DNA from: Candidatus Doudnabacteria bacterium
Lineage (GTDB): Bacteria > Patescibacteriota > Doudnabacteria > UBA920
Assembly (NCBI GenBank): GCA_963837465.1
Contig: CAWINB010000001.1
Location: forward strand, 501,646-565,645
DNA length: 64,000 bases
Direction of reading: 5' to 3'
Position numbers and translations under genes: made by a program. The first letter of the stretch is position 1; each line of letters begins with the position of its first letter. Below the pieces are notes generated by a model. That model had not been told where the DNA came from, did no database searches, and saw only the letters and a program-made list of their open reading frames with translations. Positions 3,546 through 61,200 of this stretch are shown here, in pieces.

Positions 3546-3892
3546 GAATGAGGAGTTAAATGATCTGAGAGTATTTGGGCTAGGCGTAGATTCTCCTGCC
3601 TTGTCTTCCAGGAAATTGCATGCCAGTTTTTTTCTAAGATTCTTACCCCATCAGCGTTCCAATTCGGGTTTTGTAGTCCCGGAAATCTGACTTTTTGGGA
3701 GAAGAATATTCTAGATAAGTAGCCGTCACGGGGCTCAGGGCAAAGTAAAGCGTCTACGGTATCCGGCGTAGACCCTTCACAAAGCTTTAGCTGCTGTAGT
3801 AGGATGTAAGTAAGGCCACCTTCTTCCGCTATGGATAAGGTGGAACAGAATGGCTTCAACTCTTCGAGTTGGTCGGTTGGTAAATTGCGCAT
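3542..3892 (-). CDS. E2-like (UBC-fold-like) protein, non-canonical (BilB-like)
   Basis: Its position between the Ubl and JAB genes matches the Bil/6E gene order. FPGLQNPNWNADGVRIL resembles the HPN-x-G-x-IC flap of UBC enzymes, but the canonical Cys position holds Arg. Confidence 0.45.
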   Translation of the reverse strand: MRNLPTDQLEELKPFCSTLSIAEEGGLTYILLQQLKLCEGSTPDTVDALLCPEPRDGYLSRIFFSQKVRFPGLQNPNWNADGVRILEKNWHAISWKTRQENLRLAQILSDHLTPHS

Positions 3893-5539: not shown

Positions 5540-6892
5540 ATGTCAAAACTTAATAATGTGACAGATAAAATCGCGGTGGAATACGTGGCGCTTAGTTCAT
5601 TGCGCTCACCTGAGATTAACCCTCGTCAGTGGACAAAAGAAGCAACTGCCCAGTTGGAAGAAAGTATAACTTCGTTTGGCGTGATTGATCCATTGTTAGT
5701 AAATAGCGCCCCAAAGCGCAAAGGTGTCATTATTGGCGGCAATTTCCGGGCTAAAGTTGCAAAAAAGCTTGGCATTAAAGAAGTGCCGGTAGTGTGGATT
5801 AATATTCCTGATTTGAAAAGGGAAACCGAGCTTTTGCTGAGAATGAATCGTAACGTCGGGGACTGGTCCTACTCCCTGTTGGCGGAGTTTGACCCGGATC
5901 TTCTTAAAAGTGTCGGTTTTTCTAGTGTGGAGATGGATAATATTTTTGCTATAGACGATACCCCGGAACAGTTCGACCTTCAGAAGGAATTGGCCAAGCT
6001 CGATATAAAAAAGGTTACTATTAAAAAGGGCGAGATTTATGAAATCGCCGGGTGCCGGTGCATGTGCGGCGATTCAACTGTGGAGAGCGACGTGTTAAAA
6101 CTTTACGGCAAGGAGCGTGCCGATTTAATTTTAACGGACCCTCCTTACCGACTTTCCTATCTAAAAGCCGGTAAGCGCGGAGGTAAACCAGTTGAAGGCT
6201 TTGGAGCTAAAAAGAACCGCAAATATTTGGAAACCGACGAATTACCCGCCGATTTTACCGAACGCTGGATGTCTAATATGGCAAAAGTAGTCAAAAAGGA
6301 TTTCCAGATTATTTGCTATGAAAACTGGAAGAACATTCGGGAAATTTGGAACTGTATGGAGCAGCAGGGATGGAAAGTCAAAAATATGCTGGTCTGGCAT
6401 GTGCCTACAAGGAATCAGGGTTTTGCGGGCAAGCATAAGTTCTTTTCCAAGCACGATATCGCAATTGTAGGGGCTGCTGATAAGTTAAAATTCAACTTTG
6501 AGAAAGAGGCGGGCGAACTGCAAAATGATTATGAGACGGCGTTGTATGCTATTTCGGGAAAACCGTTTTGGGAATCTTACCAGAAAGGTAAGAAATACTG
6601 CCCAACCGATTTCCTGGAATTCAACGCCGCGGATAAAAAATCATCAGGGCAGGCCATCATATTCGGAGTTAAACCGGTGGAAATTTTACTTCCTTATGCC
6701 AAAGTGTTATCCCAAAGAGGCGACATTATTGCCGAACCTTTCGGCGGTAGCGGTTCTACGGCCGCAACCGCCATTCGGCTACACCGCCGCTGTTTTTTGA
6801 TGGAAAAATCCCCAGTGTACCTTTCAGTCATATTGAACCGGCTAGAAAGATTAAGCGGGCAGAAAGCGCAGAGGGTCTATGCAGAAAAGTAA
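5540..6892 (+). CDS. ParB-like nuclease domain fused to a DNA N6/N4 methyltransferase
   Basis: N-terminal ParB motif (IIGGNFRAKVAKKLG), DPPY catalytic motif (LILTDPPYRL) and C-terminal EPFGGSGSTAATA SAM motif. Confidence 0.85.
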   Translation: MSKLNNVTDKIAVEYVALSSLRSPEINPRQWTKEATAQLEESITSFGVIDPLLVNSAPKRKGVIIGGNFRAKVAKKLGIKEVPVVWINIPDLKRETELLLRMNRNVGDWSYSLLAEFDPDLLKSVGFSSVEMDNIFAIDDTPEQFDLQKELAKLDIKKVTIKKGEIYEIAGCRCMCGDSTVESDVLKLYGKERADLILTDPPYRLSYLKAGKRGGKPVEGFGAKKNRKYLETDELPADFTERWMSNMAKVVKKDFQIICYENWKNIREIWNCMEQQGWKVKNMLVWHVPTRNQGFAGKHKFFSKHDIAIVGAADKLKFNFEKEAGELQNDYETALYAISGKPFWESYQKGKKYCPTDFLEFNAADKKSSGQAIIFGVKPVEILLPYAKVLSQRGDIIAEPFGGSGSTAATAIRLHRRCFLMEKSPVYLSVILNRLERLSGQKAQRVYAEK

Positions 6893-7328
6893 AAGGCAGG
6901 AAACAATCATCAAACGCCAGGCCAGGGAAAAATCCGCACTGTTGGAAAAATTTCGGCGCATGCCTATCTTACAGATTGCTTTGGATCAGACCAGAGTCAG
7001 CCGAAGCACCTATTATAGGTGGCTCGATGAAGACGAGCAGTTTAAAACTAATGCCGCAGAATCGATCGCTGAAGGCGAGCAGTTTATAACCGAGCTCAGT
7101 GAATCAAAATTATTGTCGCTAATAAACAAGGAACATTTTCCGGCCATACATTTGTGGCTCCGCTCACATCATTCTAAATATGCCAACAAGCTGGAACTGT
7201 CGGGAAGCATCAAACAACCTCGGGACGAAATGAATGAGGAAGAGTTCGGCATGTTCGCTCAGGCTCATAGTTTGTCCGGCTTTTCGCTGCCGCCGGATTT
7301 TGAAATAAAAAATAAAAAATTAAATTAA
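6879..7328 (+). CDS. terminase small-subunit-like HTH protein
   Basis: The HTH signature TRVSRSTYYRWL is typical of phage TerS-type proteins. It sits between the ParB-MTase and TerL-like genes. Confidence 0.55.
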   Translation: MQKSKRQETIIKRQAREKSALLEKFRRMPILQIALDQTRVSRSTYYRWLDEDEQFKTNAAESIAEGEQFITELSESKLLSLINKEHFPAIHLWLRSHHSKYANKLELSGSIKQPRDEMNEEEFGMFAQAHSLSGFSLPPDFEIKNKKLN

Positions 7329-7340
7329 GTCTGTAACCAT

Positions 7341-9413
7341 ATGATGCTAGAAAACTCTGGCTTCGTCATGGAAGCCATCAGGAGTAACCGACTGATAAGA
7401 CGTAAATTCGCCAAACACAGCCATCCGTTGTTTTTCTTAATTTACCTGTCCCGGTATATTAAGAAACCAACAGCCGCTTTTCAGCGGGAAATATTCTCCA
7501 TAACCTCCAATAAAAAACTGGACTTTATTGTCATCACGGCCTTTCGCGGCTCCGCCAAGTCCACGATCTGTACCACATCTCTGCCCATTTACTCCATAAT
7601 CAGCGGCAAGGCGCACAACATAGTCATCGCCAGCCAAACCCAGCTCCAAGCCCGCTCCCACTTGGCCGACATTAAAGCCGAGTTGGAAAGCAACGAACTT
7701 TTGGCCAACGACCTTGGACCATTTAAGGAAACGTCGGATCAATGGGGTGCTTACGCTTTGACCTTCAAAGATTATGACGCCCGCATTATGTGCGTGTCCA
7801 CGGAAACCGCTGTGCGCGGCATTAAGTTTAAAGAGTACCGTCCGGATTTAATAATCCTGGACGACATTGAGGATATTAATTCCACCCGAACCAAAGAAGC
7901 AAGGGACAAAATTCACGCCTGGTTTACCGGCGAGATTATTCCGCTGGGCGACCCCGCTACTAAAATTATCGTGCTTGGAAATTTCCTTCACGAGTACTCT
8001 TTAGTCGGCAGATTGAGGTCGGAAATTCAAAGCGGAAAACGCTCCGGTGTATTTAAGTGCTATCCGCTTGTGGACGACGACGGTAATTGTTTGTGGCCGG
8101 GCATGTATCCAACGCCCGAAGCTGTGGAAACCCAAAGGCGCAAGATAAATGACGAGCCTACGTGGCAGCGAGAATACTGCCTTAAAATCATGGAAAGCGA
8201 TGCTAGGCTGATTACGTTAGAACAAATGCACTTCTATGACAAGGTGCCGCCTAAGGATCAATACCACGGATATCTCTACACCTGGATTGGCACTGACTTT
8301 GCCGTCGGGCAAAACGACTGGAACGACTTTACCGCCGTGGTTACTTTTCAGGTTCACCATTTTAGGGGCAAGCTTCAAATTTATGTCTTACCGGATATTA
8401 TCAACAAGCGTTTGGATTTTGACCAGGCTATCGCGGCCATGCAGCAAATTTTAGATACCGTGGGCGAGCCGGAAAAAACCAAAATGATATTGGAAACTAA
8501 TGGTATTCAACTAGCCTACTACCAGCATATGCTTGGTAAGGGCTACCACCAAGTAGTACCAGTAAAAAGCAGTAACGACAAACTATTCAGAATCCAGCCG
8601 GTTATTAATTTGATTAAAACCGGAGAAATTTTATTGCCGAGAACCGGAGCGCAGGAGTTAATTTATCAGCTGCTGGATTTTCACAATACCATCCACGAAG
8701 ATCTTTGTGACGCTACCTCAATTGCCATAGGCCGGATTATAGAGGACATCACGACCAACAATCGCGGCCAGCGGCCACAGAGCTATTATTACGGCGGCAA
8801 AGACGGCCCGTATGTCAGCGAAGATCGGATAGCTCGGCTTAAAGCGGGTAAATTGGAATTTCCAATCCATAAGGAAGAAGACTGGGTAAAGCTGCGACCT
8901 TGGCAGACGCACCACTTAAACAGCATTCCGGAATATCAAAAAATTTCCAAGTGTAGCATCAACTATGCCCACATGCAGGAAAGTTTCTGTAGCCTGAAGC
9001 AAAAGATATATGACCGCTGGTATTATTACGATAACCTGGAAATGTATAGTGTAGGAGATCATACAGTCGGGCTTGAAGACGTGGAAGCCCCGCGCCTTTA
9101 TATTCTCATGGATCTGAAGTATTTTCCCAAATACTTGCCCTCGCTTATGGATTTATTCGGCCAGCCTTTTGAGCAGGATGAAGGAATGGTGACCTGGAAC
9201 GTTCAGCAGTTTTACCCATCAGAACATGTCATAGAGCTTTATCTGGTAGGTAAAGATTGTAAAGAGGCTCTAACTATAGCGCGCTTCTATAGTGAGCTGG
9301 GTAGACGACATTATTTTAACGTCTCACAAACTGATGGGTCGCTTCGCGATTACGTAAAAAGAAAGTTTGAGTTTATGAATAAAACATTGGCCGCTCGGCC
9401 GCTGTCATTCTAG
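7341..9413 (+). CDS. phage terminase large-subunit-like ATPase-nuclease, with a C-terminal extension domain
   Basis: Deviant Walker A (AFRGSAKST), Walker B (LIILDDIED) and an RNaseH-like nuclease region (WIGTDFAVGQNDWNDFTAVV). The C-terminal ~180 aa is homologous to the separate ORF at 59771-60307. Confidence 0.7.
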   Translation: MMLENSGFVMEAIRSNRLIRRKFAKHSHPLFFLIYLSRYIKKPTAAFQREIFSITSNKKLDFIVITAFRGSAKSTICTTSLPIYSIISGKAHNIVIASQTQLQARSHLADIKAELESNELLANDLGPFKETSDQWGAYALTFKDYDARIMCVSTETAVRGIKFKEYRPDLIILDDIEDINSTRTKEARDKIHAWFTGEIIPLGDPATKIIVLGNFLHEYSLVGRLRSEIQSGKRSGVFKCYPLVDDDGNCLWPGMYPTPEAVETQRRKINDEPTWQREYCLKIMESDARLITLEQMHFYDKVPPKDQYHGYLYTWIGTDFAVGQNDWNDFTAVVTFQVHHFRGKLQIYVLPDIINKRLDFDQAIAAMQQILDTVGEPEKTKMILETNGIQLAYYQHMLGKGYHQVVPVKSSNDKLFRIQPVINLIKTGEILLPRTGAQELIYQLLDFHNTIHEDLCDATSIAIGRIIEDITTNNRGQRPQSYYYGGKDGPYVSEDRIARLKAGKLEFPIHKEEDWVKLRPWQTHHLNSIPEYQKISKCSINYAHMQESFCSLKQKIYDRWYYYDNLEMYSVGDHTVGLEDVEAPRLYILMDLKYFPKYLPSLMDLFGQPFEQDEGMVTWNVQQFYPSEHVIELYLVGKDCKEALTIARFYSELGRRHYFNVSQTDGSLRDYVKRKFEFMNKTLAARPLSF

Positions 9414-9557
9414 GCTTGCCAAAACTGGACTTCCTATGGCCTTTGCGGTACCGTGTGCCTTGGAAAAGACGAATAAAAAATTAAGCGATCCGAAGGCTCT
9501 TTGTAGCCCGGCCAGCTAATAATGGAGTTTGAAATAACGAGAAAATTGTAATATACT

Positions 9558-9752
9558 GACTTTAACAATTTAATCAATCTAAGTAGCCTAAACCCGGCAG
9601 CAATGCCGGGCATGGCGAACAGTGAAATAAACTCTATGAAAATACTGAACCCGTCGTTCAGCTACTTTTCATAGAGTCGTATACCCGAAAGGGGCTACGG
9701 ACCCGCAAGGGTCATGCTGGCGGCGGGCTTTGTGCTATCTGCCAGCAAGAAA
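9558..9752 (+). ncRNA. conserved structured RNA leader, copy A, upstream of a PH-domain gene
   Basis: Elements in order: a GNRA-capped hairpin CCCGGCA-GCAA-TGCCGGG; CATGGCG; a covarying outer stem around the conserved ACTGAACCCGTCGTTCAGC hairpin; ATACCCGAAAGGG; a GCAA-capped hairpin; then ATGCTGGCGGCGGGCTTTGTG. The same architecture recurs at 41558 and 60488 with compensatory changes. Confidence 0.5.
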
Positions 9753-9767
9753 GGATAAATATACAAT

Positions 9768-10226
9768 ATGGAACCAATGGAATTAAAAGGCCAAAATGGC
9801 ACGCTCGTTATCACTGACGCGGGTGTAACCATTAAAAAAGGTCTCAAAGGATTTTTCTTAGGAGGCGGTAAGATGGGAGACAAAACTATCCCCTACTCCT
9901 CCATCGCCGCGGTGCAATTTAAAAAGGCTGGGGCGATAGCTGGCTATATACACTTAAGTTTAGTTGGGGGTATAGACTCAAGCACCAACGTGCTGATGAT
10001 GGCTAACGATGAGAACACCGTAACTTTCCAGATATGGGGCGGTAAGAATAAGAAATTTGAGGAAGGTAAAAATATCATCGAGCAAAAGATGATGGCAGCC
10101 AAATCCGGCGGCGCCCACCACAAATCAGAAGCCGATGACCTAGAAAAGTTTGCCCAGTTGAGGGATAAAGGAGTTATTACCGAGGATGAATTTCAACAGA
10201 AGAAAAAACAGCTGCTTGGTTTATAG
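9768..10226 (+). CDS. bacterial PH-like domain protein with C-terminal SHOCT domain
   Basis: The GTLVITDAGVTIKK...YIHLSLVGG region is typical of bPH/YokE-like proteins. The C-terminal LEKFAQLRDKGVITEDEFQQKKKQLLGL is a SHOCT signature. A GAAAGGA RBS is present. Confidence 0.6.
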   Translation: MEPMELKGQNGTLVITDAGVTIKKGLKGFFLGGGKMGDKTIPYSSIAAVQFKKAGAIAGYIHLSLVGGIDSSTNVLMMANDENTVTFQIWGGKNKKFEEGKNIIEQKMMAAKSGGAHHKSEADDLEKFAQLRDKGVITEDEFQQKKKQLLGL

Positions 10227-10292
10227 CCATTAATAACTTTTAATTGGAAGGACTCGGCCTTAGGGCCGTGTTCTTCAGTTCCAAAAACCCTT

Positions 10293-11147: not shown

Positions 11148-11855
11148 CTAATTCCAAATTTTTAAACCCCATCCACTAACTTTTCCTGTTAAACTCTTTG
11201 CAAATAAAGGCCAATAAATTTTTAAGTATGCATTTTTTTCAGCTAGCTTTTCTACATCAAGATCTTTATTGCTTACACCGATCCAAATAGCACTATTTAA
11301 AGACGTTGCCACTAAGTCAGTTGCCTGTAAAAGTGAATTGGTATCGTCATTAGAAAAAATAAGCCAAGAGCAAAGCCTATTTTTATATGGATCCTTCTTA
11401 TCAGATGTAACCCAGCTTTGACTGTCATTTTGAATGTGTTTAAAAAACTTTTTTGTCAGGTTAGCCTCAGTCTTATGGTCAAGATTGTCCATAACTACCA
11501 AACCTGTTTCGTCATTTTTTTTCAAAGATAAAAAAAATCGTTCAATCAAAAAATCTAAAGCGCCGAGATAAGTATCGCTAATTTTTCTTTCCGATTTCAT
11601 ACTATACTCACCAAGGTAAACAGCGCGGGCTTCAACTTTATATTTTTTTAATACTGAAAATATTTCTTCGGTAATTTTTAATTTTTGAGTTTGATTTAAT
11701 TTATTCTTGCGCGCTGATTTTAAAGTACTTATAGTATGCCTTTCTCCAATTTTTTCCAATTCGGTTGCCGCTTTTATTAAATCGTTGGCGTCAAAAATCA
11801 ATCCGCACAATACAAAATAAGCACGGCCTCGTTGGCCATCTTTGCAAATATCCAT
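11148..11855 (-). CDS. hypothetical protein
   Basis: The start is placed at MDICKDGQRGRAYFVL. The longer track ORF runs antisense through the MTase fragment. Low GC with no recognisable motif, and it replaces the 5' half of the copy-2 MTase. Confidence 0.4.
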   Translation of the reverse strand: MDICKDGQRGRAYFVLCGLIFDANDLIKAATELEKIGERHTISTLKSARKNKLNQTQKLKITEEIFSVLKKYKVEARAVYLGEYSMKSERKISDTYLGALDFLIERFFLSLKKNDETGLVVMDNLDHKTEANLTKKFFKHIQNDSQSWVTSDKKDPYKNRLCSWLIFSNDDTNSLLQATDLVATSLNSAIWIGVSNKDLDVEKLAEKNAYLKIYWPLFAKSLTGKVSGWGLKIWN

Positions 11856-12470
11856 AAAGCGGCCAAGGATGACTTTTCCATTATTGTATACGAAAACTGG
11901 AAAAACATCCGGACAATTTGGGGCGAGATGGAAAAATACTGGAAGGTAAAAAATATGATTGTTTGGCACTTGCCCAACCGTGTGCAAGGATTTTCCGCTA
12001 AATATAAATTCTTTAACAAGCACGACATTGCCATGGTCGGCAGCGGCGACAGCGACAAAGAATACAATTTGGAGTCTGAAGAAGACGGATTGCAGAACGA
12101 ATACGACACAGCTCTTTACGGCATTTCCGGCAAACCGCAGTGGGAATCGTACGCCAAAGGTAAAAAATATTGCCCGACGGACTTTATTGAGTATGTGGCC
12201 AGTGACGAAAAAAGTTCGGGCCAGGGCGTAATTTTTGGTACCAAACCAATTGAGATTCTCATTCCCTACATTAAGGTATTAACCAAACGCGGCGATTTAA
12301 TTTTGGAACCGTTTGGCGGCAGTGGCAGTACTTTGATTGCCGCAACCAAAATGAAGCGCCGCTGCTGCATTATGGAAAAGTCGTCGGTTTATGCTGAAGT
12401 AATTATTAAGCGCTGGGAAAAGCTCACGGGCCAAAAAGCCCAGCGGATAATAGCAGGAAGGGAAACCTAA
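11832..12470 (+). pseudogene. 5'-truncated ParB-MTase (C-terminal methyltransferase half only)
   Basis: It aligns to residues ~235-450 of the 5540 and 56445 products (IVYENWKNIRTIWGEME...EPFGGSGSTLIAAT) but lacks the ParB domain and the DPPY motif. Confidence 0.6.
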
Positions 12471-12474
12471 AACT

Positions 12475-13017
12475 ATGGATGAACCCAATGACATTGTTAT
12501 GCTTCCCAACCCGGAAGGTAGTGGTAACTATTCCAGCTCCGCTGACATGAAGCAGGATAAGCAAAAAGAGTTGATGGTCGAGCAGCTCAAGAAAACGCCA
12601 ATCGTGCAGGTGGCATGCGAAAAATTAGGAATTGGCCGGAGTTCCTACTACAGGTGGCGGCAAGAGGATAAAAAATTTGAGAAAGATTGTGACGACGCGA
12701 TTAAAGAAGGTCGAAACTTGGTAAATGACGTTGCCGTATCGCAGCTGTTAAGCGCCATAAGAACCGGCAATATGACGGCAATAATGTTTTGGTTAAAACA
12801 TTTTGACGAAAACTTTAAAACCAAAATTGAAATTTCGGGATCAGTCAAGCAGGTACGTGAGGAGCTTACCGAAGAAGAGATGGCTCTTTTTCTTGAGTCC
12901 TTAAAACTTGCCGGCTTTTCCGAAAAGCAAATTAATATTAATTCTAATAAGGAGACAAACGACAATGATCAACCTAGAGAAACTTCCGTTCCTGATCGAC
13001 CCGATCAGGAAAAGTAG
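12475..13017 (+). CDS. terminase small-subunit-like HTH protein (copy 2)
   Basis: GRSSYYRWRQEDKKF HTH signature. Paralogous to the 6879 and 57785 products. Confidence 0.55.
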   Translation: MDEPNDIVMLPNPEGSGNYSSSADMKQDKQKELMVEQLKKTPIVQVACEKLGIGRSSYYRWRQEDKKFEKDCDDAIKEGRNLVNDVAVSQLLSAIRTGNMTAIMFWLKHFDENFKTKIEISGSVKQVREELTEEEMALFLESLKLAGFSEKQININSNKETNDNDQPRETSVPDRPDQEK

Positions 13018-14443
13018 GCTGCTTAGGCGCAAGTTCGCCAAGCGCAGTCACCCTATGTTTTTTCTGCTGTACTTAGCCAAATATATGACTAAGCCCACAG
13101 CAGAGTTTCAGCGTGAAATTTTCACGCTCACCGAAGACAAGAAACTGGACTTTCTTGTCTTAACCGCCTTTCGCGGTTCTGCTAAGTCCACAATCTGCAA
13201 TACCTCACTGGCTATCTGGTCAGTAGTTAGCGGCCGGGCTAACAACATTATTATTGCCAGCCAGACCAGACAGCAAGCCAGACAACATCTAGCGAATATT
13301 AAAAAGGAATTAGAAACTAATGATTTACTCCGCAATGACCTCGGTCCGTTCGAGGAAGAATCGGACGAATGGGGTGCATTCGCGATTACCTTTAAGGATT
13401 ACGATGCCCGCATTATGGCCGTTTCCACCGAACAGGCCATCCGTGGTATGCGCTACAAACAATATCGACCCGAAATAATAATATTGGATGATATTGAAGA
13501 CGTTAATTCTACCAGAACCAGAGAAGCCCGAGAGAAAATATACAACTGGTTTACTTCGGAAATTGTGCCATTGGGAACGCCGGATACCAGAATTATTGTC
13601 CTTGGTAACTTTGTTCACGAATATTCTTTAGTAGGCAGACTGATGGCGGAAATTCAAAGCGGCCAGCGACTTGGTATGTTTAAGCGTTACCCGTTAATTA
13701 ATGACGAAGGTTTGTGCATTTGGCCGGGAATGTATCCGAATGATGCGGCCATTGAAGCCTTTAGGAAAAAAGTTGGCGATGAGGCAACTTGGGAGCGGGA
13801 GTACAAACTTAATATTATAGCTGCCGGAGAAAAGCTAATTCCACTGGAATGGATTAAGTTTTACGAAGAGTTGCCTTCAAGGAAAAAATCGCGCGATTAC
13901 TCTTATACTTCTTGTGCAGTAGACTTAGCAATTGGCGAGAATGAAACCAATGACTGTACGGCTATCGTTTGCGGGCAAGTCCACCGCCCAGACGGCAACC
14001 TGAAAGTTTATATTCTAGCCAATCCCACCAACGCGCGTCTAAATTTTCCTAAAGCCATAGAAGCCATGAAAAATACCCTAAACGTTTTAGGCGAACAAGG
14101 CCGCACCAAAATGTTTATTGAAACCGTAGGTTTTCAAGAAGCCTATTACCAATATATGTTTGAAAACGGTTACAGACAAGTTGAGGGCGTTAAAGTTACA
14201 ACAGATAAACGCACCAGACTTGCGCTTACAACCAAACTGATTAAAGAGGGCGTAATCGTGTTTGCTAAAACTGGTTGCGATGAACTTATCCAGCAATTAG
14301 TTGGCTTCGGCAAAGAGCATCACGACGATTTAGCCGACGCGTTCAGCATGTTAATTATGCAAATCATGAAAGAGCATGAGGAAGGAGCTGGTTTTAGGGC
14401 TTGGCTAAAATTCTGCGAACGGAACGGCGGACCGTGGCTATAA
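12965..14443 (+). CDS. terminase large-subunit-like protein (copy 2, no C-terminal extension)
   Basis: Start placed at MINLEK by alignment to MMLENSG of copy 1. AFRGSAKST, IIILDDIED, and about 75% identity to copy 1 over the core. Confidence 0.7.
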   Translation: MINLEKLPFLIDPIRKSRLLRRKFAKRSHPMFFLLYLAKYMTKPTAEFQREIFTLTEDKKLDFLVLTAFRGSAKSTICNTSLAIWSVVSGRANNIIIASQTRQQARQHLANIKKELETNDLLRNDLGPFEEESDEWGAFAITFKDYDARIMAVSTEQAIRGMRYKQYRPEIIILDDIEDVNSTRTREAREKIYNWFTSEIVPLGTPDTRIIVLGNFVHEYSLVGRLMAEIQSGQRLGMFKRYPLINDEGLCIWPGMYPNDAAIEAFRKKVGDEATWEREYKLNIIAAGEKLIPLEWIKFYEELPSRKKSRDYSYTSCAVDLAIGENETNDCTAIVCGQVHRPDGNLKVYILANPTNARLNFPKAIEAMKNTLNVLGEQGRTKMFIETVGFQEAYYQYMFENGYRQVEGVKVTTDKRTRLALTTKLIKEGVIVFAKTGCDELIQQLVGFGKEHHDDLADAFSMLIMQIMKEHEEGAGFRAWLKFCERNGGPWL

Positions 14444-14470
14444 ATGTGGCTAAAATTTGAAGGCCAAAAA

Positions 14471-14505
14471 TAAAACGCCGAATTTATTCCAGCGTTTTAT
14501 TAATA
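14471..14505 (+). terminator. intrinsic terminator after TerL-like copy 2
   Basis: AAAACGC-(13 nt)-GCGTTTT stem followed by ATTAATAA. Confidence 0.5.
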
Positions 14506-14678
14506 ACTATATTTCCTTTTTGGAAAAAACTAAATTTAACTTTCTCCAACAAGGAGGCAAGGGAAGGATGTGCAGTCCTCCCTTGCCAGCTTGAGTGCGT
14601 AAACTTTTATTTTTGTAGGTCGAGTTTGTGGCTCTCGACCTGTTTGAATTCCGCTGCCACAAAGCGGTTGCCCTTTTA

Positions 14679-15284
14679 TTAGGGTTTGCTGAGCTCGGCA
14701 ACATCTTCTGGATCATTGCCGTTGAACTGGAAGTCCTGTGCCCAGCATTGGCGATGAAGTTCGGTAATGGGGCCAAATATCAGCCCGTCTTCCCGAATTA
14801 ATATCTCTATCGCCGTCTCGAGCGTGTGCCGCTCCTGCCCATACTGGTGCATAGCGGCATATTCGCGGACTGTGGGATGGCCGCCTTGACCTAAGGGCAC
14901 AGCACCGATAAGTGCCATAACCCCTCGAGCAAAAGCGCTGCGCTTGTAAGTTGATGCTCGTGGCATCCGCTCCAGCGCAATCCTATGCAGCTCTCCCCAC
15001 TGTGACGTGGGGAAAACAAACACCAGATGCTGCCACTCTCCGGTCTCCGGATCCTGACCTTCTATGTCAGTCAAGACATCGAACTTCTCAATTATCTTGA
15101 CCTCGACCAGTTCCCCGGATATAAGCCCGAAAACCTCGTGGGGATTGAATTCATCATCCCATGCCCCTTGAACGAAATATCGGGCTCCGCACTCACACTC
15201 GTAAGTGATATTATAGTCTGCCGGAATCTCCAGCTTACGCTGACAGAACTGACAGACTATTTCTGGTAAGTTCGCCCTGTCCAC
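14679..15284 (-). CDS. zinc-ribbon domain protein, hypothetical (last gene of the higher-GC cluster)
   Basis: N-terminal CQFCQRK...YECECGARY Cys4 ribbon. It shares the high GC content of the genes upstream of it. Confidence 0.45.
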   Translation of the reverse strand: MDRANLPEIVCQFCQRKLEIPADYNITYECECGARYFVQGAWDDEFNPHEVFGLISGELVEVKIIEKFDVLTDIEGQDPETGEWQHLVFVFPTSQWGELHRIALERMPRASTYKRSAFARGVMALIGAVPLGQGGHPTVREYAAMHQYGQERHTLETAIEILIREDGLIFGPITELHRQCWAQDFQFNGNDPEDVAELSKP

Positions 15285-15343
15285 TTTTATTCTTCCTTTC
15301 TTGCGCTGGTTGCGCTCCTAGGGTGAAAGGGATTGGAGATAAA

Positions 15344-17230
15344 CTACTGCGCGGCTTTGAGCGCGACAAGAGCGACAGCGGTTGGATTATTCCACGACCC
15401 GACTGTGAAGACCTCGTCACACAACTCCACCGCATACTTCGGATTTCCAGAAGCCGAAACGATGCCTACCACCTTCACATTTTTATCGTGGGCGATGGCA
15501 TACACCGACGGTGCCGGAAAACCACTATCCAAGAAATCCCCGAACACCATTATGGTAGTATTCGGCAGGGCCTGGCGGATAGCCAGTTCAAGCCCTCGAG
15601 CATAGGAAGTACCAAAACCCGGCTGCAGCATAAGAATGCCGTCAATAACGACATCTACATCTGACTCCGGAGTCGGAACAACCACAGCTGGATGATCAGC
15701 GAACACCGTCAACCCAAAGGTTGCGCCCTTGGGTCCGTAGTAAAGAGCAGTGGCTTGTGCCGCAGCCATTGCTGACTGCATCCTGCCCTCGTGCCCCATA
15801 GAACCGCTCGTGTCAAACACGAACAGCAGGTTTGGAGCGTCGGTGCTCACGCGCTTTTGGCGAATTTCGGCGAGGTCGTCAACCGCGCCGCCACTTGCCA
15901 AGGCTTCCTCCATTGTCCGAAGCTCGTCTAACGGAGCTTCAAAGTGGAGACCGCGAAGCAAGTCTACCTGCTCGCCAGCACGGCTCATTGTCTGCGCCCC
16001 GTCTTCCACCTCGTCAAATTGTGAGATAGCTTTAAGAGCGCTTAAATGAGATATGCCTTTGAGCAATCGGTATTCAGGTCCGCCGCGAACTCGATGCTGG
16101 GGAGGGATGGTTGTCCACCGCTCCAACAACTCGATTCGCTTTTCGCCGCTAAGTCCGCGCAAGAGTGGCATCATCTTCACCAACTCCTGTGGGATATCCG
16201 CCGAAATACTTAGCTCGGGCATTCCGTCGCCCTTGCCACCTAAGGCACCGCCGCTAGTCGCCGCACCCGTTTCCGGACTCGGAGAATCTAACTGCACTGC
16301 CTGTTTGATGACTTCGGGTTTCTCGGATTGCACTATTGCCTTTTGACCTCGGACCTTAGCTTCAAAGCTGCCGTCCAGAGCCTTCAGGTCAAACCGTGCC
16401 TGCCCTTGGCTGTTGGCGAGTTCCTGCGAAATTTCACCTGCGGTCTTAATTCCATCCGCAGTCAGAAATTCCTTTGTTGGATCAGAACCAAGTAACTTGG
16501 CTAAGCTCGTGGTGTTAACCACGGCTTTGCCTTGTCCCGGCTCTTTCGCAGGATTTTGCTTTTGCCCTTGCGAGGAAGATTGAGACGAGGTTGAACCTTC
16601 AGCCTGATTTTGGTCTTGATCAGCTTGCGCCGAACTTTGACCTTTACCAGACTTAGGCTGTCTTCTCGACTCCCGGCGAAGACTGGCACAAAAAGATTCT
16701 GTGCTAAAATCAGTATCGCCATTTTCTCCCGAACCACTTTGCGTCGATGGTTTTCCAGGCTTGCCCGACTGTGAAGTGGGTTTGCCTTGGGAATCAGACT
16801 GGGACTGTTTGTCGCCCCCACCTTTCTCGGATGAAGGCTGTGGCTGTCCCGAATCTGAAATCTGACTCTCTACTTCTGCTTGCGCATAGGCTGAATCAGA
16901 CTTTTCATCTTTTTGGTCGCTGCTGTTTGCCTCCGAAGGTTCGCCGGAATTTTCCTGCTGGTTTTCGCCTTCTCCTTGTTCAGGATTAGTTTCATCCGCA
17001 GGATTATCTTCCGATTCCTCTGAAGACTCTCCGTCCGGGCTTTGTGAGCCTGGGGGTGAATCATCATCCGGCGTTGCTCCTCCGGAGGCTGCTAAGGGCG
17101 GTTGGATGTTCCTCCGAACACCTCGTGAAGGATCTTCGTGATCCAAGTGTCGGCAGTTTCTCCGTTCATCGTAACGTCGGGCGTAATTTCCACCCGCCCA
17201 CGATACACACGGCAACCGACGCTGATGCAA
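15344..17230 (-). CDS. von Willebrand factor A (vWA) domain protein with long acidic/Ser/Gln-rich low-complexity N-region
   Basis: MIDAS motif LLFVFDTSGSMG. The N-terminal 138 nt overlap the upstream AAA+ gene, and the true start is uncertain. Confidence 0.7.
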   Translation of the reverse strand: MHQRRLPCVSWAGGNYARRYDERRNCRHLDHEDPSRGVRRNIQPPLAASGGATPDDDSPPGSQSPDGESSEESEDNPADETNPEQGEGENQQENSGEPSEANSSDQKDEKSDSAYAQAEVESQISDSGQPQPSSEKGGGDKQSQSDSQGKPTSQSGKPGKPSTQSGSGENGDTDFSTESFCASLRRESRRQPKSGKGQSSAQADQDQNQAEGSTSSQSSSQGQKQNPAKEPGQGKAVVNTTSLAKLLGSDPTKEFLTADGIKTAGEISQELANSQGQARFDLKALDGSFEAKVRGQKAIVQSEKPEVIKQAVQLDSPSPETGAATSGGALGGKGDGMPELSISADIPQELVKMMPLLRGLSGEKRIELLERWTTIPPQHRVRGGPEYRLLKGISHLSALKAISQFDEVEDGAQTMSRAGEQVDLLRGLHFEAPLDELRTMEEALASGGAVDDLAEIRQKRVSTDAPNLLFVFDTSGSMGHEGRMQSAMAAAQATALYYGPKGATFGLTVFADHPAVVVPTPESDVDVVIDGILMLQPGFGTSYARGLELAIRQALPNTTIMVFGDFLDSGFPAPSVYAIAHDKNVKVVGIVSASGNPKYAVELCDEVFTVGSWNNPTAVALVALKAAQ

Positions 17231-18267
17231 GTGTCCGGCGTGATGACTTCACTCCCCGAAAGGAGCGAATACACAGCCGACTCCTGCAACAAATCGATAT
17301 AAGAACGGGGGCCGGCAACTACCTTAAACTTTCCGGAGAAATCCGTAAAGTTAGGCAATTGCGTTTGCGTGAGCTTCGTCACCGTGGCGCAGCCACGGAT
17401 AATTTGCTCGTCTATATTGAGCAGCCCGCCGAGACCTTTCTCGGCAACGAAACTACGAACGGCCAAAAGGTCGGCCGGGTCGCAATGCGTGACGGACGGT
17501 AAAGTCCGTTTTGCACCGCTGCCAATTCGGCGGAGAACTTCCACGTCTTCGTCGATTGGGAGAAATCCCAGCTCGACAACCGACGTGAATCTGTCCTTTA
17601 CCGAAATCGGAATGGGTTGAGCACTCGGATCATACTTCTTGGTGTTAGCCGTAGCGAACAACGTAAAGTTGAGATCCTTCGTGCCAACACCTTCCACGGA
17701 CACCTGCTGTTCCTCCATGATTTGAAGGAGACCGAATTGTGCCCTTGCAGGCACTTTATCAATCTCATCAAAGTGGAAGAATCCAGGCATTCCTGTTACC
17801 GTGTCTGCGAGGAATGACCGGACGGTTTGAAGTGCGTTTACAAACTGCAAACGTCCTTCGCCATCGTATTCCGACTTCCGCCGAGAAAGAAATTCCTCGG
17901 GCGTCAAGTCGGAACGTCCCTGCACGCGGTCGTAAACCACGTGCCCACCGTTCATTGCGCCCACAAGCTTTGACGCACCCTTCATCAGGGTGGTCTTTGC
18001 GAGGCCCGGGGCGGAGAACACCAACAGGTGTCCCTTAAGCCCGAGAGCCCGACGGAACAGTGCGCAGACCAACGAGTCTTTCAACTCGCTGTAGCCCACA
18101 ACAATCTCGTCCAGTCCCGACCGCAAGGATCGGAACGAATCAACAACGTTCAGTAACTGTTTCATCTTTTTTCCTTTTTGCCCCGACTGCCTACCCAGCC
18201 GGAGCCAATTGAATTTGGTATACCGGCGGGTGTAGGCCCGCCAAAAGCAGAAAGGAACCCCGAACAT
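17092..18267 (-). CDS. MoxR-like AAA+ ATPase
   Basis: Walker A-like SAPGLAKTTLMK and Walker B FFHFDEIDK. It is paired with the downstream vWA gene. Confidence 0.7.
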   Translation of the reverse strand: MFGVPFCFWRAYTRRYTKFNWLRLGRQSGQKGKKMKQLLNVVDSFRSLRSGLDEIVVGYSELKDSLVCALFRRALGLKGHLLVFSAPGLAKTTLMKGASKLVGAMNGGHVVYDRVQGRSDLTPEEFLSRRKSEYDGEGRLQFVNALQTVRSFLADTVTGMPGFFHFDEIDKVPARAQFGLLQIMEEQQVSVEGVGTKDLNFTLFATANTKKYDPSAQPIPISVKDRFTSVVELGFLPIDEDVEVLRRIGSGAKRTLPSVTHCDPADLLAVRSFVAEKGLGGLLNIDEQIIRGCATVTKLTQTQLPNFTDFSGKFKVVAGPRSYIDLLQESAVYSLLSGSEVITPDTCISVGCRVYRGRVEITPDVTMNGETADTWITKILHEVFGGTSNRP

Positions 18268-18432
18268 AGGGGAAACTCACATATTATTTTTTACATAATA
18301 CACGAGTTAAACCAAATATTCAGTTGTCAAAGATCAATCTTGAGTGTTTCAACCCAAGCGCCAGGCGGCTCCTGTTAGGGCAACAGGGCTTTGTTCCCCC
18401 GGTGTCCACCTGGCGTTTAAGTTGAATAAGTC

Positions 18433-18478
18433 GGTCGGGAGAATAAAAGATTGTGCAAATCTTTTATTCTCCCACTCC
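18433..18478. other. perfect 16-bp inverted repeat within the intergenic region of the operon
   Basis: GGGAGAATAAAAGATT-gtgcaa-ATCTTTTATTCTCCC. No U-tract follows on either strand. Confidence 0.5.
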
Positions 18479-18581
18479 GAGTGCTAAACACCGAGATTCA
18501 CGCCTTGCTCGGTTTGGCGACAGGGTTCATGCCTTCTCCTCTATGGCGATCGGTTTTAAATAAAACCGGCAAAATTTTCTT

Positions 18582-18962
18582 TTAGTTTTTCACCTCCTGT
18601 TTTAACCGCTTGCGGAGTTGGGAAGCCAACTGGGCTTCTTGTTTCTTTAAAGCGGTTATAAACTCCCGACGGACATCGTGTCCGTCCGCCGCCGAAACCT
18701 GTTTGCGTTGTTTGAGACAACGTAACAGTTCGGTCAAGCGGTAAGCTTCTTCCGGCGTATCGGGGCCGGAAGCAACGAGCCGAACATCAGCGGCGAACTT
18801 TTCGGGCAACGTCACATAGAACGTAACGTTGCCGAGAGTGATGGCGGTTTTACCCTCGATGCTGACTTCAGAACCGGAGCTTTGCCCCGACTCTTCCATC
18901 ATATCGATTGGCTCGTCGCCATACTCTTCAGATAGAAGGTTTTGCCAATTGAAACTAGACAT
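18582..18962 (-). CDS. hypothetical protein
   Basis: 126-aa ORF whose start overlaps the helicase stop by 8 nt. No recognisable motif. Confidence 0.4.
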   Translation of the reverse strand: MSSFNWQNLLSEEYGDEPIDMMEESGQSSGSEVSIEGKTAITLGNVTFYVTLPEKFAADVRLVASGPDTPEEAYRLTELLRCLKQRKQVSAADGHDVRREFITALKKQEAQLASQLRKRLKQEVKN

Positions 18963-21823: not shown

Positions 21824-21843
21824 GACAACTCCTTACCCGAAAT

Positions 21844-21972
21844 TCAGACCCTCGGGACCGGGGGAAAGTAAGCCAATACTACGCCACCTTCGGCATTGAA
21901 CACTAGCCGGGGCGGATTATTTTTGAGCTGTTCCAAGGCGGCTTCAAAAGCCGTCTCGTCTTTCTCTTTCAT
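21844..21972 (-). CDS. possible small ORF (42 aa)
   Basis: Hand-translated MKEKDETAFEAALEQLKNNPPRLVFNAEGGVVLAYFPPVPRV, with an AGAGGTG RBS. Weak evidence. Confidence 0.2.
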   Translation of the reverse strand: MKEKDETAFEAALEQLKNNPPRLVFNAEGGVVLAYFPPVPRV

Positions 21973-22027
21973 GACACCTCTTGTCCGATATTTCCATTTG
22001 AACCGTCGGACTGCGGGTCAATGCCCT

Positions 22028-41518: not shown

Positions 41519-41557
41519 TATGCACTTTATAGTTAAGCCATAAAGTGGTATAATCCA

Positions 41558-41745
41558 AATAACAATTTAGCCTAAACCACGGGCAACCGCGGCATGGCAT
41601 TAACCAAGACTCATCCTAGGTACTGAACCCCGCGTTCAGCGCTCTAGGATGAGCCATACCCGAAAGGGTGTGGGCCGTAAGGCCAGCTGGCGCGGGGCTT
41701 TGTGATTATATACACAATATTCCTACGTCGGCAGAAAGAAAAAGC
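41558..41745 (+). ncRNA. conserved structured RNA leader, copy B
   Basis: TGgTATAAT extended -10 lies immediately upstream. The architecture matches copy A, with compensatory substitutions in the outer stem (CTCATCCTAG/CTAGGATGAG) and in the distal hairpin (GGCCGTAAGGCC). Confidence 0.5.
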
Positions 41746-41751
41746 TAAACT

Positions 41752-42213
41752 ATGGAGTATCAAAAAGTTTGGGAAAAAGTATTAAACCCAGACGAAAAAG
41801 TGGAGTATGAGTTTTCTTTCAGCAATAAATACCGGAAAATGGTGCTAATTGTTTGGTCTATTGTTAGCCTCCTATTTTTATTATTTCACGTGATTTTGCT
41901 TGCCATTTTTATATTTTTAATTGTTTTATTCTGGTGGTATAGAGTGAAAATAGCCAACGCCTATGCTTTCACTGACAGAAGGGTAGTGGTTCACAAGGGA
42001 TGGCTGTCTACCAAAACCACGACTATTGACTACGACAAAATAGTGGAGGTTTCTGTTAAAGAGCCTTTCACTGAACGTAAGTTTTATGGCAGCGGTGACC
42101 TCTATATAAAAACCGCGGGCAATATAATACATGACTTAACTCTTGCCCATATAAACGCTCCTTACGAAGTAAAAAAGAGATTAGATCAATTAAGAAACAA
42201 CTATTTAAAATAA
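41752..42213 (+). CDS. bPH_2 (YdbT-like) bacterial PH-domain membrane protein
   Basis: An N-terminal TM hairpin (MVLIVWSIVSLLFLLFHVILLAIFIFLIVLFWWY) is followed by a PH-like region. Confidence 0.6.
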   Translation: MEYQKVWEKVLNPDEKVEYEFSFSNKYRKMVLIVWSIVSLLFLLFHVILLAIFIFLIVLFWWYRVKIANAYAFTDRRVVVHKGWLSTKTTTIDYDKIVEVSVKEPFTERKFYGSGDLYIKTAGNIIHDLTLAHINAPYEVKKRLDQLRNNYLK

Positions 42214-55491: not shown

Positions 55492-55624
55492 AAGGTAAAA
55501 CAAAAAATCGCTATGGAAAATTTTCAAACATAGCCTTGCAAAGTTTTTTATTTCTATGATTGTAAGGGAAAGATGCTTGAGGGGAACCCTTAAAACACTT
55601 ACAGCCATTTTTATTTGATTTCAT

Positions 55625-55733
55625 TGTCGCTGAGGTTTTGCCGGTAGGTGGAGATACAAAAAGGGTCCCCCACCTACCGGCGGCAACCTTTCGGATGCCG
55701 TCCACCTGTCCTTGCGAACAGGCACCTCAGCGA
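55625..55733. other. nested-helix structured element in an intergenic region
   Basis: Outer pairing GTCGCTGAGGT ... ACCTCAGCGAC encloses GCCGGTAGGTGG ... CCACCTACCGGC (11 bp). GTCGCTGAGG occurs a third time at 55761. Confidence 0.35.
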
Positions 55734-56444
55734 CGAGTGGCGGTTGGGAGACCGTCTTTATGTCGCTGAGGATGAAGCCATATCCGAAATTAGATTTCGG
55801 GGTTAGGCGATGGTGAAATGTGCTTATATTATATATAAATTTTGCGGGTTAGGCAACGAGATTGGTTGTATTAAAAATTACCAGAATTGGTAGTGCTTCC
55901 GTTGGACGACTGTGCCAGTGTTACGGACTTAAGTAGTATTTTAACATTCAATAGTGATACCTAAGCGGCGCCAAAAAAATTTAGCAATTATTGACTGTGG
56001 AATTTAAACTCTGGCTATGCCCACGATTCCTTAAATGCCCTGTAGGTCTTAGTGTTCAACCTTATTGCCCTAATCCTGTGAATTGCCAGTTTGAGGTATC
56101 ATCTGGCCTAAGGCAACGGGCTTACTTCAGGTATCATGTGGGATGGCACAAGTCTTAAGTTTGACAGTCAAATTAAAAAGAGTTACTATATTTATATACA
56201 GCCATCGTGAACTAGAAAGTGTATGGTTTAGGTTTTCCAAAAGAGTCCCGGAGTCGAAACCTCTTCGGGAAAATTCGGCCATATTGCTCTAAAACGGAAA
56301 ATAATAAAAAATAAAATATCCAATTAATATTTAAAGTTTGATGGATTAATAAAACTTAATAAGACCATCCAATCAGAATGGACGGCAGTTTTTTGCTATG
56401 CGGAAAACTAAAACAATCAAGTATCAAAATTAAAGTTATAACCC

Positions 56445-60307: not shown

Positions 60308-60487
60308 GAAATTGTATTTAAAACTTACAATTTATTATAGCTTTTTAGGGGGATTTTATAAAGCTGGACTTACTTAAGGGTTTGCGGTACCGTGTGCCTT
60401 GGAAAACTATTAAATAAAACCAAGGGTGTTTAAGTCTGCCCAGCTAAAATGGAGATTGAAATAAGCGGAAAATGATAGTATAATAAC

Positions 60488-60680
60488 TTTAACAATTTAA
60501 TCAAAGTAGCCTAAACCCGGCACAATGCCGGGCATGGCGAATAACCAAAACCTATAGAAAGTACTGAACCCGTCGTTCAGCTATCTTTCTATAGGTCATA
60601 CCCGAAAGGGTGTGGGCTCGCAAGAGCCATGCTGGCGGCGGGCTTTGTGTTGTCCGGATGCCAGCAGAAAGGTTATAAAC
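60488..60680 (+). ncRNA. conserved structured RNA leader, copy C
   Basis: A TATAAT box at 60479 precedes it. The architecture matches copy A, with outer stem CCTATAGAAAG/CTTTCTATAGG and distal hairpin GCTCGCAAGAGC. Confidence 0.5.
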
Positions 60681-60682
60681 TT

Positions 60683-61114
60683 ATGACTGAAGATTTGGTG
60701 CAAGCTATTGGCAGTAGAGGTAGAAAATTATTAGCAGAAAATATTGGATCAGATGAAAAAGTTTTGGTTCAACTGCAAGGCGCTTTTGGACAAGTTTTAG
60801 TAGTGACAGATAAACGGTTCTACATTATCAAATGGGGTTTTATGACCGGCAGTACTTTTGGCGGCCGATGCCTGGCGTTTGAGTATAAAAATATTAGTGG
60901 CGTGAAAATTACCAAGAATTTTGCCACGGGGTTATTTGAAATTGTCACCCCGGGCAACCAAGATACCCAAAAAAGCTACTGGGGATCCAATAATCGCAAT
61001 AATGCTAATAAAGCTGATAATATAGTGGTATTTCGCAGAAAGAGCTTTGGCCCGTTCCAGCAAGCCGCAAACCTGGCCAGGGATTTAATTAACCAAGCTC
61101 ATAATAAAAATTAA
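60683..61114 (+). CDS. bacterial PH-like domain protein (divergent paralogue of the 9768 product)
   Basis: Start placed at MTEDL after GAAAGG. The track ORF begins 54 nt earlier, inside the conserved RNA sequence. The LVVTDKRFYIIKWG...GLFEIVTPG region is PH-like. Confidence 0.5.
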   Translation: MTEDLVQAIGSRGRKLLAENIGSDEKVLVQLQGAFGQVLVVTDKRFYIIKWGFMTGSTFGGRCLAFEYKNISGVKITKNFATGLFEIVTPGNQDTQKSYWGSNNRNNANKADNIVVFRRKSFGPFQQAANLARDLINQAHNKN

Positions 61115-61200
61115 CCACGCAGTTTTACCTTAGTTTAAAAACAATATTAATTCAGAAGAACCCGGCCTTCGAGCCGTGTTCTTCAGTTCCCAAAACCCTT

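Follow-up and report, generated by a model that had tools for sequence, protein, structure and literature searches.

What is the structured RNA that recurs in a 64,000-nucleotide stretch of DNA from a Candidatus Doudnabacteria bacterium (this whole stretch is called the window here), where does it end, and what does it do for the gene that lies just behind it? An original prediction, made from the sequence, took the segments at 9558-9752, 41558-41745 and 60488-60680 (copies 1-3) to be a new structured RNA, a cis-regulatory riboswitch-like element or a small ribozyme, associated with genes of PH-domain proteins. The element is in fact LOOT RNA, a known family (Rfam RF03000), of which the window copies are further members. 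The functional RNA is shown to be about 25-60 nucleotides (nt) longer than the Rfam model, and its G-rich tail, with the U-rich stretch that follows (CGGCGGGCUUUGUG), is shown to pair with the apical region of helix P2 in a pseudoknot of at least 14 base pairs (bp). What the RNA does is less firmly answered; with moderate confidence LOOT is read as a cis-acting, bistable 5' leader that probably controls the gene behind it.

The LOOT family in the window

A cmscan of the 64-kb window against Rfam 15 returns four matches above the gathering score, all of them to RF03000. The gathering score of this model of 121 positions is 46.4 bits, and each of the four copies covers model positions 1-121 of 121, with 70.2, 63.2, 59.9 and 49.5 bits. 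The E-values of copies 1-3 (Table 1), together with a folding z of -6.9 against shuffles for the leader of copy 1, place a structured RNA at these sites far beyond chance, as had been proposed. The RF03000 alignments of the window copies contain all six helices of the family (P1, P1a, P2, P2a, P3 and P4), the CCUAAAC/GCAUGG internal loop and the GAAA loop, and minimum free energy (MFE) folds of copies 1 and 4 recover the LOOT helices. Novelty is the claim that falls, and it falls by an Rfam match, the very outcome named beforehand as its refutation; the supposed new RNA class is already explained, since a routine Rfam scan would annotate LOOT. Nor are the copies three only, for a fourth and more divergent one lies on the minus strand at 55809-55679 (E = 2.6e-6). 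At E <= 1 a permissive Rfam scan of the window finds nothing else relevant, i.e. LOOT only and one chance microRNA match, and the window contains no transfer RNAs.

The sequence blocks from which the RNA was recognised are all present on inspection of copies 1-3. A GNRA-capped hairpin sits between GCCTAAACC and GCATGGC, and the further common blocks are an inner ACTGAACCCGYCGTTCAGC hairpin, ATACCCGAAAGGG, a CCCGAAAGGG hairpin and the tail GCTGGCGSGGGCTTTGTG. The arms of the enclosing helix, P2 in the family's nomenclature, are CTCTATGAAAA/TTTTCATAGAG, CCTATAGAAAG/CTTTCTATAGG and CTCATCCTAG/CTAGGATGAG, all different and all complementary, and the distal GNRA hairpins differ as well (GACCCGCAAGGGTC, GCTCGCAAGAGC and GGCCGTAAGGCC); the compensatory changes between the copies, which vary yet pair, are thus genuine. 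It is also correct that no reading frame is common to the copies, because copies 1 and 3 are separated by insertions or deletions of 1, 3, 1 and 2 nt.

The LOOT motif was first described by Weinberg et al. 2017 (PMC5737381), Rfam has included it, as a 'metagenomic-based RNA', from release 14 onwards (PMC7779021), and it has been described with six helices and about 43 bp (PMC7657543), a description in which, by its own count, no pseudoknot was included. All known LOOT RNAs are from uncultivated bacteria, and no function has been assigned to them: Rfam types RF03000 as 'Gene; sRNA' (small RNA) of unknown function, and a literature text search, its scope not extending to the original supplement, found no paper on what LOOT does.

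Homologues were collected with the pattern GCCTAAACC-N8-30-GCATGGC-N50-80-CGAAAG, which returned 120 metagenome and 5 viral loci; an earlier and looser pattern, GCCTAAACC-N8-24-GCATGGC, had given 240 loci that were mostly chance matches and from which about 17 true loci were kept by filtering. A long-helix filter on the collected loci yielded 137 distinct LOOT loci. As befits an RNA of uncultivated bacteria and metagenomes, they come mostly from groundwater and sediment metagenomes and from metagenome-assembled genomes (MAGs) of Patescibacteria, the candidate phyla radiation (CPR), with a few IMG/VR contigs. LOOT also occurs on predicted viral contigs (L231 from IMG/VR, L135 and L361), and L231 carries it twice, at 461-566 and 3685-3835, one copy being weaker; this is consistent with carriage by phages of CPR bacteria. 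Two alignments were made, one with MAFFT (125 sequences, after 126 of 135 loci had been kept for their detectable tail) and an independent one by way of an extended covariance model (R1) that was fitted to Rfam-like helices and not to the pseudoknot. R1 gives copy 4 51.5 bits. It also matches the window at 24824-24942 (+, 21.5 bits), a match judged to be due to chance because it is without the CCUAAAC/GCAUGG motif and lies inside an open reading frame (ORF) at 24325-25134.

Tail and pseudoknot beyond the Rfam model

The distal GNRA hairpin is where the Rfam model ends, and a conserved tail, GCUGGCGSGGGCUUUGUG, is left outside it. In every locus this tail is complementary to the P2 apical region and the two change together, e.g. 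CUCUUCG : CGGAGAG, CCCAUCG : CGGUGGG and GGUCUCCC : GGGGGACC. Compensation is seen within the window itself, where the pseudoknot core is CCCCGCG : CGCGGGG in copy 2 versus CCCGUCG : CGGCGGG in copies 1 and 3. In the MAFFT alignment 10 pseudoknot pairs reach 94.1% pairing (46-61% with the partner columns slid), and double-sided changes are found in all 10 (220 cells), a result equalled by none of 500 shuffles. Four more pairs of the same alignment reach into the U-rich tract (80% paired versus 41-62%), and one of these occurs as CG 28, GU 28, AU 27 and UG 15 times. The independent alignment gives 87% pairing over 14 bp, versus 45-56% slid. The duplex between apical region and tail has a mean energy of -23.6 kcal/mol with the locus's own tail, versus -14.4 with the tails of other loci (p = 7e-61). 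A further 4-6 bp between the 5' part of the tail and the P2a 3' strand are suggested by a sequence-based count only (4.2 versus 2.6 consecutive pairs) and, if formed, would be topologically hard to fit with an intact P2.

In most loci the end of the pseudoknot helix is T-rich (6-8 T in 9 nt), an arrangement reminiscent of a terminator; yet the first six positions of the tract co-vary with the 5' strand as a helix. A terminator scan of copies 1 and 3 found no local GC-rich, short-loop hairpin followed by a U tract at the tail; what stands before the U-rich tract is the long-range helix of the pseudoknot.

Among 105 homologues P2 itself pairs at 98.5%, and most of its positions show all four kinds of Watson-Crick pair; copies 1 and 3, elsewhere 85-90% identical, have different pairs at 7 of its 11 bp. 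P2a reaches 62.5% pairing in the model-based alignment, a value lowered in part by register differences between subfamilies; P2a and the long pseudoknot may coexist or may alternate. In the MAFFT alignment the invariant or near-invariant nucleotides map to three elements, namely CCUAA(A)C/(GC)AUGGC, the GAAA loop and the pseudoknot. The GAAA tetraloop and its 11-nt receptor are familiar from group I and II introns and RNase P. The P1 loop of LOOT, CCUAAA(C)...(G)CAUGG (CCUAAC...AUAUGG in copy 4), resembles this receptor, which is written CCUAAG...UAUGG (bioRxiv 10.1101/2024.03.11.584472), with an A/C pair in place of the canonical G.U, and the P3 loop is invariably GAAA; we infer from this likeness that the P3 loop may dock into the P1 loop.

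At the other end of the RNA an ACAAYY (ACAAUUUAAU) motif stands 7-15 nt upstream of LOOT at 70 of 113 loci (62%), versus 4.8% in the control. In the window it is found at 9564-9574, 41559-41568 and 60491-60501, about where transcription should start and outside the Rfam model. Pairing of this leader motif with the start region is not locus-specific (p = 0.16), though the MFE folds of copies 1 and 4 contain it. The window copies thus share the Rfam helices and conserved loops, and what they have beyond the model is the pseudoknot tail, the upstream motif and the alternative pairings of the start region described below; the tail, the pseudoknot and the cis-regulatory evidence appear to go beyond the Rfam record.

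Leader position and proposed competing folds

Among the homologues a sigma-70-like site (at least 9/12) occurs within 70 nt upstream at 57% of 123 loci, versus 8% in the control, and the -10 box mostly ends 14-24 nt before LOOT. The window copies begin 14-27 nt after a consensus sigma-70-type -10 box, and the -10-like boxes noticed earlier before copies 1-3 are borne out (Table 1). A same-strand ORF starts within 200 nt of LOOT at 111 of 116 loci (96%), at a median of 41 nt past the tail (interquartile range 30-52); the position immediately upstream of a gene had been recognised correctly for copies 1-3. Because a co-oriented ORF so close has no space for a promoter of its own, LOOT forms the 5' leader of the ORF's transcription unit, i.e. 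it occupies the 5' untranslated region, and because this leader stands before very varied genes it probably controls whichever gene follows.

The variety of these genes is considerable. The 110 proteins downstream of LOOT homologues match 83 Pfam families, the largest being Trypsin_2 (7), followed by N6_N4_Mtase (5), DUF4352 (5), zinc ribbons (5), tRNA_anti-like (3), and Ltp, Mrr_cat, HSDR_N and bPH_3 (2 each), and many of the other proteins are small with an N-terminal hydrophobic segment. A PH-domain gene behind each copy, as first proposed, is thus only partly upheld: copy 2 is followed by a clear bPH_2 protein, and copies 1 and 3 by proteins with weak or related matches. The gene of copy 1 has DUF4429 and SHOCT with a faint bPH_6 match; its protein gave no match by exact-sequence look-up, and a literature text search found nothing on DUF4429 as a PH domain. 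Of the 110 downstream proteins only 2 match bPH_3, and with 83 families downstream the PH-domain link is therefore local to the window.

The same diversity bears on a classical metabolite or ion riboswitch with the LOOT fold as its aptamer. Location in the 5' untranslated region, a complex pseudoknotted fold and mutually exclusive pairings that resemble an expression platform are what such a switch would have. Against it, the downstream genes form no coherent set and have no metabolic theme, including as they do proteases, DNA methylases, restriction enzymes, zinc ribbons, Ltp and small membrane proteins, and it is the receptor-like loop, the GAAA loop and the pseudoknot that hold the invariant and near-invariant nucleotides, and not junctions capable of forming a pocket. 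With no common gene theme and with the conserved nucleotides outside an obvious ligand pocket, such a riboswitch is improbable; of the 'cis-regulatory riboswitch-like' role first suggested, the cis-regulatory half is supported by position and alternative pairings and the riboswitch half, in its classical metabolite-sensing form, is unlikely.

These alternative pairings are of two kinds. First, the tail can also pair, locus by locus, with the strand right behind the U-rich stretch, forming hairpin P5. Within-locus complementarity for P5 has a median of -13.75 kcal/mol versus -10.7 in permuted pairings (p = 7e-6), with compensatory variants such as UGGCGG/CCGCCA, UGGUGGC/GCCACCA and CUCGUGGGG/CCCACGAG. 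P5 and the pseudoknot share the same tail nucleotides, and their energies are close, P2a plus P5 amounting to about -21 kcal/mol and the pseudoknot duplex to about -26 before any pseudoknot penalty.

Second, at 30 of 137 loci, versus 0.85% of permuted pairings, a stretch of at least 9 nt (and as many as 15) from the P2 5' arm recurs without mismatch; in nearly all 30 this second copy stops 0-9 nt short of the ATG with which the downstream ORF opens, and the arm sequences so repeated are of more than 20 kinds. With wobble pairs counted, a duplex of -14 kcal/mol or better joins the P2 3' arm to the start region in 23.5% of loci, versus 2.2%. With a copy of the 5' arm placed at the start codon, the 3' arm of P2 can mask the start site. 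Copy 4 is such a case, for in it CCUCAGCGACA occurs at 55771-55761 and again at 55635-55625, next to the AUG; when the 5' half of this RNA is omitted, the predicted fold (-72.5 kcal/mol) is a nested one in which the P2 3' arm pairs with the start repeat and encloses P3, P4 and P5. There are thus two sets of mutually exclusive pairings, pseudoknot versus P5, and P2 versus the helix of its 3' arm with the start site.

On the favoured reading as a bistable leader, the native fold would be a compact one built of the pseudoknot, the receptor-like P1 loop and the P3 GAAA loop, in which P1, P2, the pseudoknot, P3 and P4 would keep both the tail and the P2 3' arm occupied and leave the start region free, so that translation would be on. 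In the nested alternative the P2a hairpin and P5 would form, and in some loci the P2 3' arm would cover the start codon and the ribosome-binding region, turning translation off; start-site masking of this kind would apply to about a quarter of family members, copy 4 included. Because its partner strands are transcribed first, the native fold may form first during transcription, with the competitor strands emerging later. The U-rich end of the pseudoknot may also serve as a long-range intrinsic terminator or attenuator. As the signal that shifts the fold, an effect on folding or of Mg2+, a protein, or 5' processing would be likelier than a metabolite.

If LOOT were instead a stand-alone, trans-acting sRNA, it would have its own promoter and end at the U-rich tract, the pseudoknot helix would be its terminator stem, the ORF would be reached by leaky read-through, and the compact RNA would act elsewhere or bind a protein from a dual-function locus. 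This agrees with the Rfam type, with the very diverse downstream genes, with conserved nucleotides that are all architectural, and with a GC-rich pseudoknot helix that is A-rich on its 5' side and runs into the T-rich stretch. It is nevertheless unlikely. The P5 3' strand and the start-site copy of the P2 arm lie beyond the tract and co-vary with LOOT, which is not expected if the RNA ended there; the first six positions of the tract co-vary as part of a structural helix; the co-oriented ORF found at 96% of loci, a median of 41 nt past the tract, leaves no space into which a second promoter would fit; and a search of the window allowing up to 3 mismatches found no trans targets of the P2 arms, the only site being the cis copy at copy 4.

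A still less probable role, though not quite as improbable as the riboswitch, is that of a 5' stabiliser or nuclease-resistant cap that shields accessory, phage and defence mRNAs from 5'-end-dependent decay without any switching. LOOT is always at the 5' end of the transcription unit, its conservation is architectural and it precedes unrelated accessory genes, all of which would suit a cap; this would, however, leave the locus-specific P5 and the start-site mimic unexplained, and 14-27 unstructured nucleotides stand 5' of P1.

Several points weigh against the bistable leader as well. The homologue set is biased, in that the pattern demanded GCCTAAACC...GCATGGC...CGAAAG and the MAFFT alignment a detectable tail. 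The start-site mimic is not universal, since about 70% of loci are without it, and copies 1-3 are themselves among those with no clear mimic, a possible pairing there being of 6-8 bp only. The U-rich tract of the tail would also suit an sRNA that ends there, as Rfam types LOOT; some of the features may already stand in the original LOOT description; and the whole case is one of sequence comparison and predicted folds.

More tentatively, the bistable leader can be generalised, LOOT being then a widespread, gene-independent, 'programmable' translational gate of Patescibacteria and their phages and not a free-standing sRNA. The pseudoknot and the tetraloop-receptor fold would hold the 3' arm of the hypervariable helix, and on opening of the fold this arm would mask the start site; as the start site carries a copy of the 5' arm, the sequence of the helix would be tuned gene by gene. 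The 3' pseudoknot tail that is absent from the Rfam model would be the hinge on which the switch turns, and it may serve as a long-range terminator as well.

Known systems offer partial parallels. In the fluoride, ZTP, preQ1 and SAM-II riboswitch classes the 3' strand of a pseudoknot has alternative partners. LOOT is like such riboswitch and attenuator platforms in its 5' leader position, in a pseudoknot 3' strand with a neighbouring alternative partner and in a helix that masks the region of the ribosome-binding site. It is unlike them in having no coherent regulon and no evident ligand pocket, an unusually long pseudoknot (14-19 bp), a competitor strand downstream of the U-rich tract, and a start-masking sequence that is the arm of a hypervariable helix and not a conserved strand. 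In the mRNA leaders of hok-type type I toxins a long-range fold-back closes the start until refolding or processing. LOOT shares with these the placement of a distant segment on the initiation region, and many LOOT-associated ORFs are small hydrophobic proteins; it differs in that there is no antisense RNA partner, large enzymes are among the downstream proteins, and the LOOT core has no counterpart there. To our knowledge regulation in CPR bacteria is almost unstudied. What is gained for LOOT is a revised 3' end, a long pseudoknot with very good support, a leader position that is consistent, and alternative pairings, specific to each locus, that extend to the start codon; by these an orphan sRNA becomes a testable hypothesis, that of a cis-acting switch before accessory, defence and phage-type genes of CPR bacteria.

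Coordinates and genomic setting

Table 1. Parts of the four LOOT copies and the genes behind them, by position in the window (aa, amino acids)
Copy	Feature	Position	Strand	Details
	LOOT core parts			P1 with CCUAAAC/GCAUGG internal loop, P1a, P2, P2a, P3 (GAAA loop), P4 (GNRA loop)
1	Sigma-70-like promoter	9529..9557	+	TTGAAA-17-TATACT; 10/12 match
1	Leader motif	9564..9574	+	AACAATTTAAT; at or near transcript 5' end; also in copies 2 and 3
1	LOOT core	9585..9713	+	RF03000 63.2 bits, E = 1.6e-9; MFE fold agrees
1	P2 arms	9632-9642 and 9666-9676	+	
1	Pseudoknot 5' strand	9643..9656	+	UACUGAACCCGUCG; junction, P2a 5' strand and P2a loop
1	Pseudoknot 3' strand	9721..9734	+	CGGCGGGCUUUGUG; beyond Rfam model
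1	Alternative hairpin P5	9715-9721 with 9741-9747	+	UGCUGGC (9715-9721), 5' flank of pseudoknot 3' strand
1	Downstream gene	9768..10226	+	152 aa; DUF4429 (PH-like) and SHOCT
2	Promoter-like site	41526..41554	+	TTTATA-17-TATAAT, TGG before -10 box; 10/12 match
2	LOOT core	41569..41684	+	RF03000 59.9 bits, E = 9.4e-9
2	P2 arms	41610-41619 and 41644-41653	+	
2	Pseudoknot 5' strand	41621..41634	+	UACUGAACCCCGCG; core CCCCGCG complementary to CGCGGGG
2	Pseudoknot 3' strand	41691..41704	+	CGCGGGGCUUUGUG
2	Downstream gene	41752..42213	+	153 aa; bacterial PH domain bPH_2, 50.3 bits vs cut-off 22
3	Sigma-70-like promoter	60456..60484	+	TTGAAA-17-TATAAT; 11/12 match
3	LOOT core	60508..60628	+	RF03000 70.2 bits, E = 3.7e-11
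3	P2 arms	60551-60561 and 60585-60595	+	
3	Pseudoknot 5' strand	60562..60575	+	UACUGAACCCGUCG
3	Pseudoknot 3' strand	60636..60649	+	CGGCGGGCUUUGUG
3	Alternative hairpin P5	60630-60636 with 60660-60666	+	
3	Downstream gene	60683..61114	+	143 aa; weak bPH_3, 19.4 vs Pfam cut-off 23 bits
4	Promoter-like site	55828..55856	-	TTGCCT-17-TATAAT; 10/12 match
4	Divergent LOOT core	55679..55809	-	RF03000 49.5 bits, E = 2.6e-6; extended model R1 51.5 bits
4	P2 arms	55771-55761 and 55734-55725	-	
4	Pseudoknot 5' strand	55753-55746	-	GGUCUCCC
4	Tail	55641..55680	-	pseudoknot 3' strand GGGGGACC (55671-55664), then UUUUU
4	Alternative hairpin P5	55680-55670 with 55651-55641	-	CCGGUAGGUGG with CCACCUACCGG
4	Repeat of P2 5' arm	55625..55635	-	CCUCAGCGACA; exact, 11 nt, abuts AUG
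4	Candidate small ORF	55511..55624	-	37 aa, Cys-containing (MKSNKNGCKCFKG...); no family match

The candidate ORF behind copy 4 fills the gap before a convergent gene for an 858-aa transglutaminase/VWA protein that ends at 55491. The window as a whole holds three modules of ParB-methylase, small terminase and large terminase, with helicases, VWA, AAA_5 and transglutaminase proteins, a serine recombinase and an Ltp-type lipoprotein, and its 690-aa terminase is closest to proteins of Patescibacteria/Paceibacterota MAGs; by this gene content and these terminase relatives the window looks like a stretch of a CPR genome rich in mobile-element and defence genes. The paralogous modules (ParB_N with N6_N4 DNA methylase, small and large terminase) lie at 5540-9413, 11832-14443 and 56445-59738. 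No other virion genes are recognised beside them, and behind two of the three modules comes a gene led by LOOT.

Copies 1 and 3 share the sequence upstream, LOOT itself and a downstream DUF4357/GIY-YIG gene at about 85-90% identity, and the ORFs between these flanks (9748-10231 versus 60667-61139) have no detectable similarity (BLASTP E = 62). The replacement looks like a cassette-like exchange or an extreme divergence of a PH-like protein. It is one of the observations that would suit a self-cleaving ribozyme or an RNA of gene-cassette mobility, the others being the several copies per region, beside terminase and recombinase genes, and the direct repeat of the P2 arm. Of all the roles weighed this is the least credible, the ribozyme half of the original prediction included: no ribozyme family matches the window even at E <= 1, LOOT has no conserved unpaired core, and the P2-arm repeat is not a target-site duplication, because its left copy lies inside the conserved structure and P1 lies outside the repeat.

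Copies 1 and 3 each have, some 60 nt before the LOOT promoter, a conserved 47-nt block (9421-9467 and 60360-60406, 85% identical) with TTTGCGGTACCGTGTGCCTTGGAAAA and a GGTACC palindrome. It was considered as a part of LOOT and rejected, because 117 other LOOT loci have no such block upstream; it may represent an operator or else the end of a different element. Direct repeats, apparently intergenic, are found at 43964-44024/44152-44212 (80%) and 51048-51159/51412-51523 (88% identical). Finally, a GC-rich island at 14000-22000 (0.50-0.56 versus 0.36-0.45 elsewhere), in which VWA and DEAD-box helicase genes lie, may have been acquired separately.

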